From Mytilus edulis (lineage: Eukaryota): a stretch of 64,000 nucleotides of DNA. Both the position numbers and the translations under genes were made by a program. Positions 4,436 through 14,045 of this stretch are shown piece after piece. Below the pieces are notes generated by a model. That model searched no databases. It worked only from the letters and a program-made list of their open reading frames with translations, and was not told the DNA's origin. The stretch is from NCBI RefSeq assembly GCF_963676685.1, contig NC_092354.1, positions 37,386,001-37,450,000 of the forward strand, read 5' to 3'. The stretch's first letter is position 1, and each line of letters begins with the position of its first letter.

Positions 4436-4899
4436 GCTTTTACATCGTTCTACAAATGCCCAATAATTATCATATCTTTGTGTTAATGAAATCCCATTAT
4501 AATATTTCGGAATAAAGGAATTATTTGTAATTTGTTTCTTGTTTATCAAGACGCTTGTTGAAGTTTTTGATTTCAGAGAGATCCCTTTGATCCTCTCCCT
4601 ATAAAAACCTTGGCAAAAATGCAGTAATTCATTTGTGGGAAAAAATTGTCGTCAGATCATGTTTTATCATTATTTTGGTAATAAAAACAGCAATAATTAG
4701 TGAAAGGAAGATGAAATTAATTTCAATGAGGCGTTGTTATTGAATTCTCTTCATGGTGGTGCCATAAACAGGATGTGTACATGTTTTGTTAAATATTTTT
4801 TTGTTTTCGTGCTGAAGTTCTGGTTGTGGAATAATCATCCCATTGCATATGGAACGTTGGAAATGAAATAAAAAAACAACAACATTTAATTAAAAACAA

Positions 4900-5645
4900 G
4901 AGTAAGTACTCCCTTCTGATTGGTTGAATTTGTTTTTCCACAGCAGCTTGGTGTTGTCCTATTTCCAGCACCCAAATGTCCATGGGTCCACAGACTATAT
5001 TGTCTATAGGTAGCATATCTATGACATTTGTTATAATCCTCATCGCCGTTTTGTTGAGCCATAAAATTGTTCCTATAACGGATTGCAACCTCTAAAACGA
5101 GAGCACAAAGCACCACATTACTAAATTCACGAAAAAGAAAACATTTTAAAACTTAACTTCTATAAAAGTAAAACTGGAGAAAGATGATTTTTCAAACAGA
5201 TTATTATGAATTTAATGTTGACATTATTTTTTGTTAAAGAATGGATATAATAAAGAATGAATTTTCACAAAATGACGATAACATGAATTAGTTTACATCC
5301 TCTATATATGGACTCAAGTGGATATTTGACTCATATGCAATCATACCACATCTCTTTATTTCTATATTGATCTCTAGGTAAATAACTAATAGTACTTACT
5401 GGTAAACGTGAATGACAGTTGTTTTGGAGTTATCTGCAACACACCCTCTCTTGCTCTGTGGGCATATCCCTACACAAAACTACATCTACACCAGGTAGGT
5501 TGGTTGTTATTACTTTCCTCAGGGTTGGTCATTAGGCTGTAATGAGGTTCTGTTTAATATGGTGAACATGAGGGATGGCTGTGAACGGCATGCCTCAAGA
5601 AATGTAAGTCTTATGTCCTCTTCTGACAATAGGCTTACACAATGC
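4900..5645 (-). pseudogene. P2X7 cytoplasmic-ballast-like / Kolobok KolX-like two-exon gene relic
   Basis: Exon 1 reads PTWCRCSF(fs)CRDMPTEQERVCC...NCHSRLP followed by a gtaagt donor near 5399. Exon 2 reads VLEVAIRYRNN...NKCHRYATYRQYSLWTHGHLGAGNR..PSCC, fitting the R..AYRQ...W.HG.LG..NR..PSC signature. Frameshifted. Confidence 0.8.
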
Positions 5646-8285: not shown

Positions 8286-8806
8286 TTCATCCATGTGATA
8301 TGAATATACGAGACTGTAAATAATCCAGGTGATAATATGGGATGTGTTGACCTTTTCTTTGTGCGTTTGGTTTCGATCCTGTATTTTGTAGTTATCAATG
8401 GTATAGTTTCCTCTGTGGCAAATAGTTGGCATTGTCGAAAAAAACGATCCCTCCACAGACACAGCATGATTCACAATCTGAGGTGTTGTGTATTTTGCCA
8501 CTAACAAATGGTGACTGTGCACTTAAATTTAACTCTTTCATGATTGGGATACATAAATTCAGGAATTCAATTCAAGGTTTTTAAAAGTTTAAAAATAAAG
8601 GGACTTGTTGCTCTAAAAGCACACTATTTTGGGAAAAAAATCTCCAATCGGAAAAGATTTCAAAGATTCTGTTGTTATAATGTAAAGAACCACAAACTAG
8701 GTAATTGCTTGGTAATACCGATAAAAGTCATTCAATATATCTGTCATAGCAGGTTGATAAGTGGAAATAAACTCATCATAGACACTAGAACTAAATGTTA
8801 GTTTTT

Positions 8807-9704
8807 TCATGTCTTGTAGCAATTAATTGTGAAATTATTGTCTATTCCATTCATTTCAATGTTCGGATATTCTCCTGAGATATGTCTATACCCTTCAAGG
8901 CCTTCATAGTCTATACCCTTCAAGGCCTTCATAGCTGGAATACTGTAAACCAACTTAATTTCGCGAGCGATTAATTTTCGCGACTTTCGCGAGTAGAAAA
9001 ATAACGCGAAATTAAATCGTCGCGAATATGTATAACTTGTATCTGTCCTTATCAAAACGCATATAGTTAATTAGAAAATCGCGAAATTAAATCCCCGCGA
9101 AGTGAACTAGCTGGGAATAAACGCGAAATATAGTATCTGCGAAAATAAGTTGGTTTACAGTATATTGATAACTGCAGGGCTGTTTCTAACGCTGTTACTG
9201 TATAAGTGAATTCCTGTTCCGGTGGTGTGGTTGTTTCCTCTGGTTGTGATTCTTTTTCCTCCTCGTCACTGCTGATGTATAAATCTTCTCCAAGATCTAT
9301 AGTATTATTGTCGAGATCTGATTTAGCTATAACTCGGAAAGTAGGTGGTTTTTTCCAATCGATTTTCTTCGTAGCCTTCATTGGCGGTTTCCACGGCTTG
9401 ATTTTTTCGGCTAATTCTCGTGGTGTTTTGTCCTCTACAATAAGTCCCTTTGAATTGAATATATTGTGATCTGTTTTCATATGCCTATGTGCCGAGTCCC
9501 TCCTAATAAAGGATTTGTTGCACCAGGAACATGAATAAAGGATTTGTTGCACCAGGAACATGAAAAATTGGTTACTGTCGGTCTGTGGTATGTGTTAAAA
9601 TGTCTTCTTAAACTGCTCACCTTTTTGTAGTTCTTTTGGCATCGGGTACAGTTTAAGGAAAGCGGTTCTTGCGGTTTACGTAGAGTTGTTTTCGTTTAAG
9701 CCAT
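8807..9704 (-). pseudogene. Disrupted ORF encoding two C2H2 zinc fingers (207 aa reconstructed), directly after the Penelope-like ORF
   Basis: Fingers CTRC-QKNYKKVSSLRR-HFNTYH and CSWC-NKSFIRRDSAHR-HMKTDH. The frame is restored by removing MITE 8943-9160 plus TA and the 29-bp (9505-9562) and 25-bp (8884-8933) tandem duplications. One TAA remains at codon 3. Confidence 0.8.
8943..9160. mobile_element. TA-TSD MITE (Tc1/mariner-type target)
   Basis: TIR ctgtaaaccaactta (15 bp perfect, 22 bp with one mismatch), TA on both sides, internal cgcgaa repeats. Confidence 0.9.
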
Positions 9705-11118
9705 TATCTTCTTAAGTTGAGTCCCCACGGCGATAGTTAATATATATGCTTCTTCTGTGCGTAGTCGTGTATTGACGTTGGCAACGGTGGTTTTGATGCC
9801 CGTTATTGTTACGTCGTTGGTATTGTGTCCTTCTGCGATAAAATGCTTCGAAACGGGTTTATGTTCTTTTTTATTTCATGTGCCCGTAAAATCTTTCACA
9901 AATGGTGTTCCCTATTTGACCTATATATTGTTTGTTGCATTTTTTGCATTTGATTATATATATAACGCTGGTGGTTAAGCATGTGATCGGTTCTGTGATT
10001 TTAATTGTTTTTTCGTTTGAGTGGCTTTTTATTTCTGTTGAATGGGTCATCTTTGTGCAGATATGGCAATTCCGGCCGCACGGCCGGTTTCCTTTAGGTA
10101 GCAATACACAGTTAGAAGTTTAGTTTCGCATTATGGCCCCTGTGAATTTTTTAAATGTGAAAGTTTTTGTACAATAAAATTGATTTTTAGATAACTGAAG
10201 AATAATATAGCCTTCTTAGTGGGTTTATATGAACATTTAGATTGATTTTAACATGTTTTAAAGGCCATTTCTATGATTGACAGTCCGTATTTTCCTATCC
10301 GTACCGTTCATAGGTCCATAAATTATTGTAGTGTTTATCGACAAAGATTTTGCGCTCGATCTTTTCAATTCAATTTTATGGAAAAACGAGCAGGAAAGCA
10401 TATGATTTTTTTTGGACCACTTGATAGACATAAACCTATGGATTCAGGAAAGGTATCACTGTAATTCATTGAAATTTTCCTTTAGATCAAATTTTGGAGA
10501 CTTTTGTGACATGTTTACCCCCCTTTTTTGCTATATTTTGTATCTAAGAAATGCAGATTGTTGCCATGGTTACACCTAAAAGGGATTATATTTCACCCTT
10601 ATGACCATTAGAAATCAAATCTATGGAAGATTTTCTTTCTATAAGTATATACATGCATAACACACATATAAAGCCTTCTTTGTTAGACAGGAGGGGAAAG
10701 AGGGTGTTCAAAAATTATGAGTGTCAATTTTAAGTTTTTTTCCTAACTGTGTATTGCTACCTTAGGGATTAACGGCTTTATGTCTGTGTTCACTAATAAT
10801 TGGCGTAGGCTGGTGGTTTCACGTGTGGTTACATCAAATTTCATACGGGACATATGGTATGTTTCTGGTGATCTTTCTAAGATGTCTTTCCGTTGGTTAA
10901 TAATTTTTCTTATTTTAGGGTTGTATGGGTGGTGGGTGATAATGAATTGTACATTTCCTTCTGTGGTTCCCATTCTTGGTGTGAAGAGTTCGTTCCGATC
11001 TTTTTCGTTTGCATTTTTGATAGCCTTTTCTATGATTTCCGGGGGTAGCCTCTTTTTATAAAGTTTTCTTTCATCTTCTGTGTGTGTAACTGGTAATCAT
11101 CTATTGTACTGCATGTGA
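9704..11118 (-). pseudogene. Penelope-like retroelement 3' part: RT thumb/HTH, Cys linker, GIY-YIG endonuclease
   Basis: Motifs in order: KRGYPPEIIEKAI; ITHHPYNPKIRKII; SLRQLLV; PCGRNCHIC; VIYIIKCKKCNKQYIGQ...ERFYGH; PVSKHF...GH; RLRTEEAYI; PWGLNLRR*. Interrupted by the MITE at 10097-10761. Confidence 0.9.
10097..10761. mobile_element. MITE with 3-bp TTA TSD (PIF/Harbinger-type)
   Basis: 19-bp TIR ggtagcaatacacagttag with TTA at 10094-96 and 10762-64. Excision rejoins the Penelope frame as KPLIPK-GNRPC. Confidence 0.88.
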
Positions 11119-11191: not shown

Positions 11192-12049
11192 TTAGCTGGC
11201 GTACGATGGTCTGTTTGAAACGAGATCATTCGAAACAGAAGCTATCTGTTTAGCTTCTGGGTAACTAATGTTTTTTTCTGTTTTAATTTTAATAATATTT
11301 TTTTCTTTAAGGTAAACAGGGCAGTCCCTAGACGATGAAAAATGGGATTCACTACAGTTTACGCATTTAGAAGATTCAGAGCTACAGTTTGTTCCCTCGT
11401 GTCCTTCGTCAGAACACTTGAAACATCTCTGCTTACCACGACATTGTTTGCTTCCATGACCAAACTTTTGACAAGTAAAGCATCGAACTGGTTTTGGGAT
11501 AAACATGTCAACTCTGATTCCGAAGCAACCTAAAGTAATAGATGGAGGAGGAGTTGGAGTTCTAAAGGTCACAAGATAAGTATTTAATTTGATTATATTT
11601 CCATTCTTTTTAATTTGAAATCTTATAACATCAGTTACACCTTGGCTTGAAAGTTCCTCACCGATTTCTTCCACGGTAAGGTCACCAAGGTATTGACTTC
11701 TGTCTCGAATGTTCCCCTTACAGCTGTTCAAACTGTTATGAGGAGAGGCAGAAACAGGAACGTTTGATATTGTAGACATTGTAAGTAAATTTGTTGATTG
11801 ACTTTTGTTGGAACATTCAACCAACAAATTAACAGATCTCATTTTTGAAACTTTTTTAACAGTACCAGCAACGCTTTGAATTTGTTTATGAATTACAAAG
11901 GGCGATATTTTTGAAATTGGTTTTTCTTCTGATCCTTTTATTACAATAAATCTGGGCCAACTGTCATCTTCCCGACAGGGCTCTGAATCATCACATTTTC
12001 TTTTCTTATGTATTAAAGCTGATTTAGAGGGTTTGTTTTGTTGTGCCAT
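11192..12049 (-). CDS. LINE (I/Nimb clade) ORF1 gag-like nucleic-acid-binding protein, probably 3'-truncated
   Basis: ATG at 12049 (MAQQNK). Contains WPRFIVI...SPFVIHK and three knuckles CFTCQKFGHGSKQC, CFKCSDEGHEGTNC, CVNCSESHFSSSRDC, ending KIKTEKNISYPEAK...SYAS. No ORF2 follows. Confidence 0.9.
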   Translation of the reverse strand: MAQQNKPSKSALIHKKRKCDDSEPCREDDSWPRFIVIKGSEEKPISKISPFVIHKQIQSVAGTVKKVSKMRSVNLLVECSNKSQSTNLLTMSTISNVPVSASPHNSLNSCKGNIRDRSQYLGDLTVEEIGEELSSQGVTDVIRFQIKKNGNIIKLNTYLVTFRTPTPPPSITLGCFGIRVDMFIPKPVRCFTCQKFGHGSKQCRGKQRCFKCSDEGHEGTNCSSESSKCVNCSESHFSSSRDCPVYLKEKNIIKIKTEKNISYPEAKQIASVSNDLVSNRPSYAS

Positions 12050-12595
12050 ATGAAAGGAGAAAGATTCACCATTCTTGTCATCCACCCACCTCGGAGTGCC
12101 TACAAGGGCGATGCTGTGTTTCCGTGGCGAACCGGGATCAAGTGCTAATGCTAAAAACGAGCTCAAAATATAATGTAGCTGGTCCTCAAAATCAGCACCC
12201 AAGATCCACTGCGGAAAGCACCAGATGTTCCAAGAATAGTATACTCAAGCAGAGCGTATCCATCAAGCGAAAAAGATTGATTGATTGATTGTTGGTTGCT
12301 TTACGCCGCATTAGCACAAAAAGGCTATATCGCGGCGAGAGCTAATTCGAATATTTTTACAATTTAAAGCATATTTTTAAAATAAGACAAAAAGTCCTTC
12401 AATATACTAAAATTCTTGACTAAAGTAAATTGAGTATATACAAATAAAAATCAACAGTAAAATAACGTGATAAAATTAAAATCGATTTAAATATAATAAC
12501 ATTCTATAATAAATTCCAATTTCTTTCCATCAAGCGAAAAAGAAATCGTACCACTTGATTGACCCATGAGCCATCGCCTTCTTCAGTTATCCGAA
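12050..12595 (-). mobile_element. 5' UTR of the LINE, interrupted by the insertion at 12275-12525
   Basis: GC-balanced leader continuous with ORF1. It resumes after the duplicated target tccatcaagcgaaaaaga. Confidence 0.65.
12275..12525 (-). mobile_element. 5'-truncated LINE 3'-UTR copy with (CAAT)n tail and 16-18-bp TSD
   Basis: Near-identical to 17286-17535. Flanked by tccatcaagcgaaaaaga at 12259-12276 and 12526-12543. Confidence 0.92.
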
Positions 12596-12654: not shown

Positions 12655-14045
12655 TATTGTTGAGGATGCGTATTCAAACTCGAGTCGCTTAGGACAGTAT
12701 TTCAGCATCATGGAGTGATATGTTTATAATGCTCCTGTGTGGCAAAAAGATCTAGTTGACGTATATCCAGTAGAATTAACTTGTCTGTGACGACCTTCTC
12801 TAATGCTGCATATGCTTGGCTGTCTTGCTTCAACCATTTCTTTTTCCTTATATCATCAGGGCTTAGTGGGGGGTGTCCACATTGTGTCACAATCTTCCCT
12901 GGAAAGGTGTGCCTATTCGAAATATGACAAAGCAGGCTTCTTCATGTCTCTTCATCAGAATCACCATCAGCTTGTCGGGAGCAGTACCAAATGTGATTAC
13001 AGATGGAGGGGATCCATGGCTTAACCTCATTTAGCAGCTTCTGTGGCTTTATGACTAAGATCTTCTTCTTAATCGATTTTGACAGATGCCAAACGTCAAA
13101 CTGATGTTTCTTGTTACTGTGGTCTGTTGCCATGGCTTTGTGGATCTCTGTCTGTAACCACGACTCCAACTGTGAGATCTGCAGCCTCAATGCTTGCAAG
13201 GGACCGCTGAAATCTGAAATCCTATGAGTTCCATCCTGTTTGACGATGTGGTCTCAAGAAACCTGAACTAAGCTTAAGTCTGGTATGACGCCGGTGGCTG
13301 AGTCCATGAACGTGTACGTACAGTACTTGGCTGAAAAGCCTGGACTGTCCATCGCCCCCCACGAATGAGCTGTTTACCATGTAGCTGCTGTAGAATGACA
13401 TCTCTTTGCATGGTGTAGTAGCGGTCAATGGCAGGGATGGCGATGTCTTTCTGCAGACTGTAAATTTGGGTTGATCCAATAAACTATAGTGAAAGTTTCG
13501 GCAAAATGAGATAGTCTTGCAAAGGTTTCACTAGAGAGGATAACAGCTGTAGCCACCATCAAATTACCAGCAGGTTTATTGTTGACCAATGGTTGTGACT
13601 CCCACGAAGTTTGGTGACCTTTCATACATAGGAACTTCACTCTCATGGCAGTACCGTTTTAGATGATCTCGTATTCGTCAGCAGCAATCAGTTCTCCACA
13701 GTCTGTGCAAATCACTCGTCCAAACAATGACTTTAGGCAGCTCTCAAACGCAATAACCTTGGGTTCTGTGGTGATGTGTTGCGAGGAGTCTGAAGAGGAT
13801 GACTGATTTGAGTCCCGGGATTCGTCGCTTGGTACATATGATAGATCGCTGTCGGGTTTCTCGGGGCTGGATGTTGGTGTAGGCGTGGGTCTTTCTGAGT
13901 TGAACTAATGAATGCTGTGTCAAGTGGTTGTGTTGAGGAGATAGGGACCTGCAAGTGGTTTGTCATTGATGTTCCGAAATCAGTGTCAGTTTGAAGTTGT
14001 GGAAATGTCTAAACCCCAACTTCAACCATTTAGGGTTTCGACTGT
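12655..14045 (-). pseudogene. Kolobok/Mutator-like DDD/E transposase relic
   Basis: Motifs C..GH...WESQP...AGNL; GDG(fs)MDSPGFSAKYCTYT; VTDR; HQFDVWHLSKSIKKK; WIPSICNHIWYCS; CGHPPL...KKWLK; FCHTGAL*TYHSMMLKYCPKR. Multiple frameshifts. Confidence 0.85.

Follow-up and report, generated by a model that had tools for sequence, protein, structure and literature searches.

The window analysed here is a stretch of 64,000 nucleotides from the mussel Mytilus edulis, and the feature of interest within it, at positions 8807 to 11118, is a dead copy of a Penelope-like element (PLE), truncated at its 5' end near 11117 and broken by further insertions and deletions and by two miniature inverted-repeat transposable elements (MITEs). 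It is a fossil from an endonuclease (EN)-bearing Penelope clade of low copy number, in which three open reading frames (ORFs) lie between pseudo-long terminal repeats (pLTRs) that carry hammerhead ribozymes. The third of these, referred to as ORF3, encodes two C2H2 zinc fingers (ZF); it is a real, selected and previously unremarked third gene of the clade, and as judged from its sequence it begins with a register-exact likeness of the N-terminus of histone H3. Two sibling units, arranged head-to-tail in tandem elsewhere on the same contig, are 90-92% identical to the window copy, and comparison with them revealed that both the 3' pLTR and the hammerhead have been lost from the latter.

Upstream of ORF3, the window copy retains parts of the minus-strand frame encoding reverse transcriptase and the GIY-YIG endonuclease (RT-EN). 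A remnant of the RT thumb and linker (10762..11117, minus strand), which is 95% identical to the siblings and aligns by tblastn with the intact RT-EN protein P0002, has lost 1 nt near 11045. It is followed by a MITE of ~665 bp (10097..10761) with ~26-nt terminal inverted repeats and a TAA target duplication, evident both as an inverted repeat and as a 669-nt insertion relative to a sibling, and then by the cysteine linker (CGRNCHIC) and GIY-YIG domain (9704..10096, minus strand), where two 11-nt deletions lie near 9876 and 9741; this fragment was matched with an E-value of 0.017 and ends in SPWGLNLRR and a stop codon. An earlier note on this DNA, made from the letters alone, had described a single small frameshifting lesion in the GIY-YIG part. 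That lesion is real, but it is one of several, and this second MITE has to be added to them. The stop codon (TAA, 9706-9704) shares one A with the start codon of ORF3 (ATG, 9704-9702), giving a TAATG overlap (9702..9706, minus strand) exactly as the note had proposed; the siblings retain it.

ORF3 in the window (8807..9704, minus strand) is itself inactivated by a TAA stop at codon 3, by exact tandem duplications of 29 bp (9505..9562, causing a frameshift) and 25 bp (8884..8933), and by a 218-bp MITE with a TA target duplication (8943..9160), located by repeat analysis and sibling comparison. These insertions had all been recognised previously, as had the 624-nt ORF that their removal restores, in which the only stops are at codons 3 and 208. 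Both siblings have AAA at codon 3, which settles the question raised earlier of whether it is sense in relatives. With respect to the end of the ORF at 8807, a TGA is present at 8809-8807, but the siblings have AGA at this point and the tail frame stops three codons later. Intact homologs are found in proteins P0001, P0009, P0010, P0014 and P0015. The reconstructed protein is identical at 161 of 174 positions to P0014 (a Mytilus edulis entry at NCBI, labelled 'KRAB') and at 115 of 206 to P0015, in which the same C-terminal tail, YEGLE..GEYPN, is in frame.

The motifs of ORF3 listed in the earlier note, namely two C-x2-C-x12-H-x4-H fingers, KPWKPP and EDLYISSDEEE, are all present, each on the minus strand. 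Finger 1 (9585..9650) has K, S, S and R at helix positions -1, 2, 3 and 6, and finger 2 (9466..9531) has R, D, S and R; when the broken pieces of the window copy were submitted to Pfam, they scored 23.6 and 23.7, just below the cut-off of 25.2. KPWKPP (9382..9399) falls within invariant alignment columns of a clade motif, P..A....W.PP.E..P.F, and EDLYISSDEEE (9256..9288) represents an acidic L..DL..S motif in the C-terminal half, for which the structural model is of low confidence. The H3-like N-terminal decapeptide (9675..9704, minus strand), which reads MAKTKTTPRK in the family and is damaged at codons 3 and 8 in the window, had no place in the earlier reading and was found in the present analysis.

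ORF3 as a gene of the element

The full element consists of a pLTR with hammerhead, ORF0 (helical, ~184 aa), RT–GIY-YIG (755 aa), the 2×C2H2 ORF (208–240 aa) and a further pLTR. In a young element of the C180 family, identical 330-bp pLTRs with hammerheads surround ORF0 (184 aa), RT-GIY-YIG (755 aa) and the ZF ORF (240 aa), and an inverted 5' copy of the pLTR is present besides the direct repeats, an arrangement typical of EN+ Penelope elements. All three ORFs are likewise found in the C5 element. Between C180 and C5, ORF0 shows 53-55% identity, and its model is a long helical hairpin with a best Z of 9.1 among unrelated helical proteins; structure comparison of the model found no specific fold, and the ESM Atlas held no match for ORF0 and only generic C2H2 clusters for ORF3. 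The spacing of ORF0 and RT differs, the two being in frame with one TAA between them in the C5 family and ~130 nt apart in C180.

RVT_1 and GIY-YIG score above their Pfam cut-offs in P0002 and P0013, and the RT is of the PLE type (DKG, [Y/F]IDD) with a C-terminal GIY-YIG, as in EN+ Penelope elements. Between RT and EN lies the CX2-5CxxC motif of Neptune and Nematis elements (CRKNCYLC, CGKKCYLC), and by these motifs the element appears to be of Neptune/Nematis type, the tree having held only this genome's elements and no named references. The hammerheads are of the minimal type-I form, two of the three folded giving a hammerhead-like fold; a search of three loci against Rfam returned no hammerhead match and one chance match to a CRISPR repeat. 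The single ORF with which EN+ Penelope elements are described is not what is found here, there being three ORFs in both full-length families and in a second, distant lineage (below). The bicistronic Penelope element of the earlier note therefore stands in so far as a conserved, selected ORF follows directly on the GIY-YIG stop, but the element has three ORFs and not two.

Linkage of ORF3 to the element was examined from both sides. A genome search with the intact homolog P0001 gave 34 matches, of which 30 had loci that were examined; three proved to be unrelated host poly-finger ORFs, and the other 27 amount to 18 insertion sites (flanks are common to C13, C139 and C180, which were counted once, as were C7 and C300). 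A GIY-YIG end lies directly upstream of the ZF ORF at 13 of these 18 sites, the remaining five beginning at or inside the ORF, and a CUGAnGA...GAAAC hammerhead core is found 0.8-1.3 kb after the AUG at 12 of the 18. In the converse search, 30 of 150 GIY-YIG matches were examined. The ZF ORF was present at the stop in all 13 close matches (53-100% identity; 10 sites), whereas a homolog followed none of the 17 distant ones (35-38% identity), which provides the count of abutting ends that the earlier note had called for. Since the sites are related by descent, these counts indicate linkage rather than independent origins.

The same note had also suggested that dN/dS be computed. Between families, values for the ZF ORF were 0.09, 0.14, 0.16, 0.18, 0.29 and 0.29 (p<=8e-5 in all six pairs), compared with 0.15 and 0.19 for RT-EN; within families, five pairs of dead copies gave 0.36-0.74, with one value significant. 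Closest-family pairs agree between the GIY-YIG tree and the type of stop-start junction, and comparison of ORF3 and GIY-YIG trees for this genome's elements yielded few resolved forks. ORF3 is, with a high degree of confidence, an integral gene of the element that is maintained by purifying selection and has its own start codon within -8 to +1 nt of the RT-EN stop.

When the part of ORF3 that follows the fingers was searched as a profile, 33 proteins matched at E<=0.001, a few of them by chance. Twenty of these were looked up, and those named derive from M. edulis, M. coruscus and the scallop Argopecten irradians, with one protein from a Candidatus Thiodiazotropha assembly that is probably host DNA. 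The sole context from outside this genome is P0021, an M. coruscus gene model that joins the GIY-YIG and ZF parts; scans of metagenomes and prokaryote genomes for ORF3 context in other organisms gave 0/58, 0/31 and one weak generic match of 74. In public mussel proteomes ORF3 carries the host-gene label 'KRAB', which is a mis-annotation, Pfam reporting no KRAB family in ORF3.

A second Penelope lineage, with an RT 34.5% identical, was used as a distant control (L086 and L087, G000:C3:19663299-19667949, and L096-L114). Its elements comprise ORF0, RT-EN (868 aa), a 2xC2H2 ORF of their own ~205 nt after the stop, a CCGGCG array and a hammerhead, and the ZF ORF adjoins RT sequence of the lineage at 7 of 13 sites (20 loci examined). 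ORF0 here overlaps the RT-EN frame, which is without an early Met, by ~255 nt (L086:8027-8914, L087), which suggests a frameshift.

Two further observations concern individual parts of the element. A lone intact ZF ORF of 219 aa with a hammerhead, at L049:5525-6184, starts at the AUG; no RT was found within ~10 kb upstream of it, and the genome has no other copy closely related to it. The blocks GGTATCCAC and GG(C/T)GTTGGTTCA, at the 3' end of the pLTR, are conserved in three families (L041:8985-9060, L010:8150-8225, L007:5480-5555) and may be a structured RNA signal that serves RT or translation.

The stop-start junction and translation of ORF3

Fourteen junctions at 13 sites were compared, and comprise TAATG (three), ATGGCTAA (three), TAAAATG (three), TAATATG (two), TGAGATG (two) and TAAGATG (one). 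The distance between stop and start is -8 to +1 nt in all 14, across five families; since the exact bases vary, it is only the closeness of stop and start, from an 8-nt overlap to a 1-nt gap, that is conserved. ORF3 lies in the -1 frame relative to RT-EN in the window family and in the +1 frame in the others. Viral reinitiation tolerates stop-start distances up to ~20 nt (PMC10275272), and in all 14 junctions stop and start are within ~20 nt and out of frame, as in reinitiation of the TURBS type (from 'termination upstream ribosome-binding site').

Transcripts were sought in sequencing runs, the C180 element being present in 19 of 23 listed, and contigs of four runs were examined, the reading of runs X3 and X4 being confined to their contig-covered parts. 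In one run a single 4,176-nt contig corresponds to the 4,146-nt unit closed on itself, although a collapsed tandem would look alike, and in another a 3,886-nt contig starts 2 nt after the inferred hammerhead cut. In the only run that is on record as RNA, a contig spans the RT-EN/ORF3 junction. Contigs from all four runs were free of splice joints, with the proviso that contigs drop rare forms. Circular PLE RNA has been proposed earlier (PMC4209133). An intron joining ORF0 to RT, or a spliced ORF3 mRNA, was considered and rejected, there being no joints in the four runs and the AG near -40 being missing in the window family. Separately, 11 of 16 differences in one run (X3; L041:8232-8298, 8602-8640) are clustered T>C changes in low-depth contigs; these resemble ADAR hyper-editing of antisense RNA, but alleles could look alike.

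On a slight balance of probability, these data suggest that ORF3 is translated from unit-length RNA by ribosomes that reinitiate after terminating on RT-EN. Several findings count against this. TAATG occurs in only 3 of 14 junctions and is specific to the window family; the earlier note had itself named lack of conservation of that overlap as a result that would tell against its proposal, and taken to the letter this is what was observed. UGGGA is the 18S-complementary upstream motif of TURBS, and it was found in none of six regions of 120 nt upstream of the junction. Synonymous sites before the RT-EN stop appear unconstrained (0.41-0.47 versus 0.43-0.62). Moreover, that three of the four runs are RNA is only a guess, and a single transcript cannot be proved from contigs.

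The main alternative is that ORF3 is expressed from a separate short RNA that starts just upstream of its AUG, arising from an internal promoter or by processing, with the closeness of the two ORFs reflecting compact packing; this could feasibly be the case, and it deserves appreciable if lesser credence. The 5' ends of 4 of ~22 copies lie within ~70 nt of the ORF3 AUG (-48, -42, ~0 and ~+18), a weak post hoc signal (Poisson p 0.01-0.04), and in the second lineage the arms that contain RT end at 2892-2894, with one ZF-pLTR copy beginning at 2897. The missing TURBS motif also fits a short RNA. Conversely, reinitiation calls for just such a distance, kept at -8 to +1 nt in five families whose exact bases differ, and neither a splice joint nor a conserved splice acceptor before ORF3 was found. 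Insertions of the second lineage are often head-to-head pairs whose outer ends fall at the RT stop and the pLTR end, two fixed points separated by 1.76 kb; identity is ~76-81% for the ZF arms and 95-96% for the RT-end arms, as if two RNAs or two priming sites were used.

The H3-like N-terminus and the zinc fingers

The start of ORF3 has the consensus MA[K/N/R]TKxT[P/K]RK. Comparison with this genome's own H3 was made for 18 of 21 listed proteins (left out were the second-lineage protein, another whose start is shifted and a third that has no tail), and revealed matches at A1 in 17/18, T3 in 17/18, K4 in 17/18, T6 in 18/18, R8 in 16/18 and K9 in 16/18, one homolog matching at 8 of 9 positions. 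Beyond K9 the likeness ends: at none of positions 10 to 15 do more than 4/18 match, and it is here that a variable linker starts. Among 8,664 distinct Met+9-mers from the window and the fetched loci, at least five of nine H3 matches were found in nine ORF3 starts and H3 only, and shuffling of each tail's own residues gave p<=0.01 for 17 of 18. All four Ala and Thr codons are used in the tails. Since synonymous codons vary and third positions are unlike those of the H3 gene, the constraint is at the level of the peptide; the possibility that the tail was recently taken over from an H3 gene was rejected, third positions matching at only 1-3 of 9. The residue after Met is small in every case (Ala in 17, Val in one), as Met removal in H3 mimics requires.

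As read from these alignments, A1, T3, K4, T6, R8 and K9 of H3 are copied in the first nine residues after Met, and the tail probably serves as a functional mimic. Some features weigh against mimicry. R2 is kept in 4/18 (Lys in eight, Asn in six) and Q5 in 0/18, while A7 is kept in 1/18 (Pro in 11, Lys in five), and 11 of the 18 tails contain T-P-R-K/Q, which can also be read as a site for a cyclin-dependent kinase (CDK) or as a basic motif. The M-Z-R-X-K rule for H3 mimics needs Arg at position 2 (PMC8166343) and fails in 14 of 18 tails, with Arg in four and Lys in the window family. A predicted complex of the tail (residues 2-31) with the PHD2 domain of this genome's CHD4-like protein and zinc scored 0.26 against a mark of 0.34 and constitutes evidence neither way; phmmer with the first 25 residues against the PDB gave no matches.

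The fingers are of the classical C2H2 type, zf-C2H2 scoring above the Pfam cut-off in all four intact ZF ORFs scanned, and are modelled with predicted local distance difference test (pLDDT) values of 85-90; the best Foldseek rows were CTCF, Tramtrack-type and Kaiso fingers, all at E>0.01. Position -1 of finger 2 is Arg in 19/19 intact second fingers and position +6 of finger 1 is Arg in 17/18 intact first fingers, and from the C2H2 recognition code this conserved pair predicts a GG core. The code-predicted 6-mer occurs seven times in the 3' region of the window family, compared with 1.6 in shuffles (0 of 500 reach seven), and is also enriched in C4b (4 versus 0.9) and in the second lineage (25 versus 7.9, in a repeat array). 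Unbiased counting places GCGGT first among 5-mers in the pLTR region of the window family, with five occurrences against 0.29 expected. The 11 aligned copies all have an xxGG(T/C) word 44-47 nt upstream of the hammerhead, beside a TGACGT that resembles a cAMP response element (CRE). Five of six GCGGT words (sibling unit, downstream of the ORF start) and all 16 CCGGCG words (second lineage) are in the 3' non-coding part.

That the fingers bind xxGG(T/C) words within the pLTR promoter of the element itself is a prediction to be put forward tentatively, at a little under even chances. The code-predicted site shows no enrichment in the C5 family (3 versus 3.6), and its enrichment in C180 and C7 is marginal (P 0.05, 0.09). 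Bases 5' of the GG show no clean covariation with finger residues across families, Asn-to-A failing at the homologous site, and 3' regions of ZF-less Penelope elements (14 loci) hold 0-3 such words per 420 nt, near the four of C4b. TGCGGT is also a host Runx-type word. The second-lineage ZF ORF has similar finger residues, but lacks both the H3 tail and tight stop-start coupling.

Put together, the predicted translation, DNA binding and mimicry would give the following mechanism, which is considered to have an even chance of being correct as a whole. Ribosomes terminating on RT-EN would reinitiate at the ORF3 AUG on unit-length element RNA, and removal of Met would expose a free H3-like tail beginning at Ala2. 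A need for a free N-terminus would explain the separate start codon, ORF3 never being fused to RT-EN though the frame differs between families. The two fingers would bind xxGG(T/C) words in the pLTR promoter, where the tail and the acidic-hydrophobic C-terminal motifs would engage readers or writers of H3K4/K9. The outcome would be activation or anti-silencing of the element's own promoter, which is about twice as probable as self-repression. A broader version is doubtful: that of a bivalve-wide clade with a sequence-specific, histone-mimicking counter-silencing factor, whose fingers would read its own pLTR and whose H3K4/K9-like tail would decoy or recruit readers, with reinitiation on a three-ORF RNA that would be processed by the ribozyme and possibly circular, and with two-finger ORFs and their own pLTR words recurring in distant lineages.

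Alternatively, ORF3 could be a retrotransposition co-factor, made in cis with RT-EN and retained in the ribonucleoprotein, which it would tether to chromatin or target DNA; the fingers would then supply a DNA-binding module that the short GIY-YIG is without, and the H3-like tail would dock on chromatin readers. Tight stop-start coupling favours co-production with RT-EN, the agreement of closest-family pairs in GIY-YIG tree and junction type is in keeping with it, and additional DNA-binding domains are often attached to GIY-YIG modules (PMC8557442). However, the concentration of predicted words in the element's own pLTR, described above, counts against this, and the co-factor role is regarded as unlikely. 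Somewhat less probable again is that the N-terminus is simply a basic motif (T-P-R-K) for nuclear import and CDK-regulated DNA binding, that the pLTR words are host Runx and CREB sites, and that ORF3 is an accessory DNA-binding protein with its target elsewhere, such as in host genes. Replacement of R2 in most tails, the frequent P7 and the failure of the M-Z-R-X-K rule would agree with this, and the CRE-like TGACGT beside the GG word makes it plausible that host factors act there. Yet nuclear import does not need register-exact A1, T3 and T6, an abrupt end after K9 or a linker of variable length, and the shuffles of each tail's own residues also argue against it. Finally, that ORF3 is the leader ORF of the next tandem unit, as the earlier note had allowed, or a captured zinc-finger gene of the host, unrelated to the element or neutral, is refuted: the siblings do form a head-to-tail tandem and gene predictors do label the ORF 'KRAB', but the 5' copy of the identical pLTRs in the complete young element does not contain ORF3 and is followed by ORF0, and linkage is strict, selection purifying and KRAB not reported by Pfam.

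Related systems and neighbouring sequences

Histone mimicry has precedents in viruses and host factors, and if the proposed role of ORF3 is true it would represent a new transposon route against chromatin silencing. For the study of how EN+ Penelope elements are transcribed, translated after ribozyme cleavage and kept active, the mussel element offers young intact copies, six natural junction variants, and a predicted binding word and tail residues that can be mutated. The literature searched contained no downstream C2H2 ORF in a PLE and no transposon-encoded H3-tail mimic, although Repbase or the supplements of PMC8557442 could list such ORFs.

With Neptune and Nematis EN+ PLEs (PMC8557442; fish Neptune, PMC12602865) the mussel element shares the DKG RT, the CX2-5CxxC linker, the C-terminal GIY-YIG, direct and inverted pLTRs and the minimal hammerhead; Fundulus Neptune has a separate upstream ORF without a known domain (PMC12602865). 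Unlike these, the mussel element adds an ORF downstream of EN, inside the pLTR frame, with two classical C2H2 fingers and an H3-like start. Accessory chromatin- or DNA-binding modules and extra ORFs are also found in Chlamys PLEs, which carry PHD and SAP domains and an upstream zf-CCHC ORF (PMC8557442), and in Terminons (PMC6431247). Those elements differ, however, in being N-terminal-EN or EN-minus and telomeric, with accessories that are fused or upstream, and no downstream C2H2 ORF is described in the parts of those sources available; the Chlamys PHD is, moreover, a histone reader, whereas the ORF3 tail is mimic-like.

Proteins with H3 N-terminal mimicry include BCL11, SALL, FOG, TSHZ and VRK1 (PMC8166343), and further mimics are the viral protein influenza NS1 and host G9a (PMC6028506). 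As in the former group, ORF3 would present a free H3-like N-terminus on a C2H2 protein with K4 in register, but it is encoded by a retrotransposon, its match extends to T6-R8-K9, and R2 is mostly Lys or Asn. At the junction, stop and start within a few nt recall SART1 UAAUG and calicivirus TURBS (PMC10275272), with UAAUG itself in the window family. The mussel ORF downstream is, in contrast, an accessory one and not RT, the geometry varies between families and UGGGA is not found upstream; coupling of the SART1 type consists of UAAUG plus a required downstream RNA structure, and six single-sequence folds of the mussel junction, with only 30 nt downstream included, had no fold in common. Likeness to a further system lies in the proposed logic only, namely that a protein encoded by the element would act on short words of that same element's non-coding region. 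Arabidopsis VANC is a transposon-encoded, sequence-specific anti-silencing protein; it belongs to a plant DNA transposon and is an unrelated protein, whereas ORF3 is a C2H2 protein and putative histone mimic with an inferred function.

In the window, a 350-aa gag-like ORF with CCHC knuckles (11192-12244, minus strand), by its motifs from an unrelated long interspersed nuclear element, directly abuts the truncated 5' end of the copy, and further upstream (12700-13900, minus strand) are degenerate frames that are transposase-like. Approximately 10 kb from the sibling tandem, L006 (G000:C11:27918431-27919684, minus strand) contains broken frames that resemble a protein-primed DNA polymerase B of the Polinton type. 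Downstream of the window copy (4886-5152, minus strand) is a P2X7 C-terminal (KolX-like) domain scoring above the cut-off for Pfam PF20478. KolX has been linked to Kolobok Kol0-type DNA transposons (PMC9587614), and the Penelope copy probably sits inside such a transposon. P0016, a public M. edulis gene model, splices the dead ZF ORF of the window to this KolX-like frame, which is most likely an artefact of prediction.

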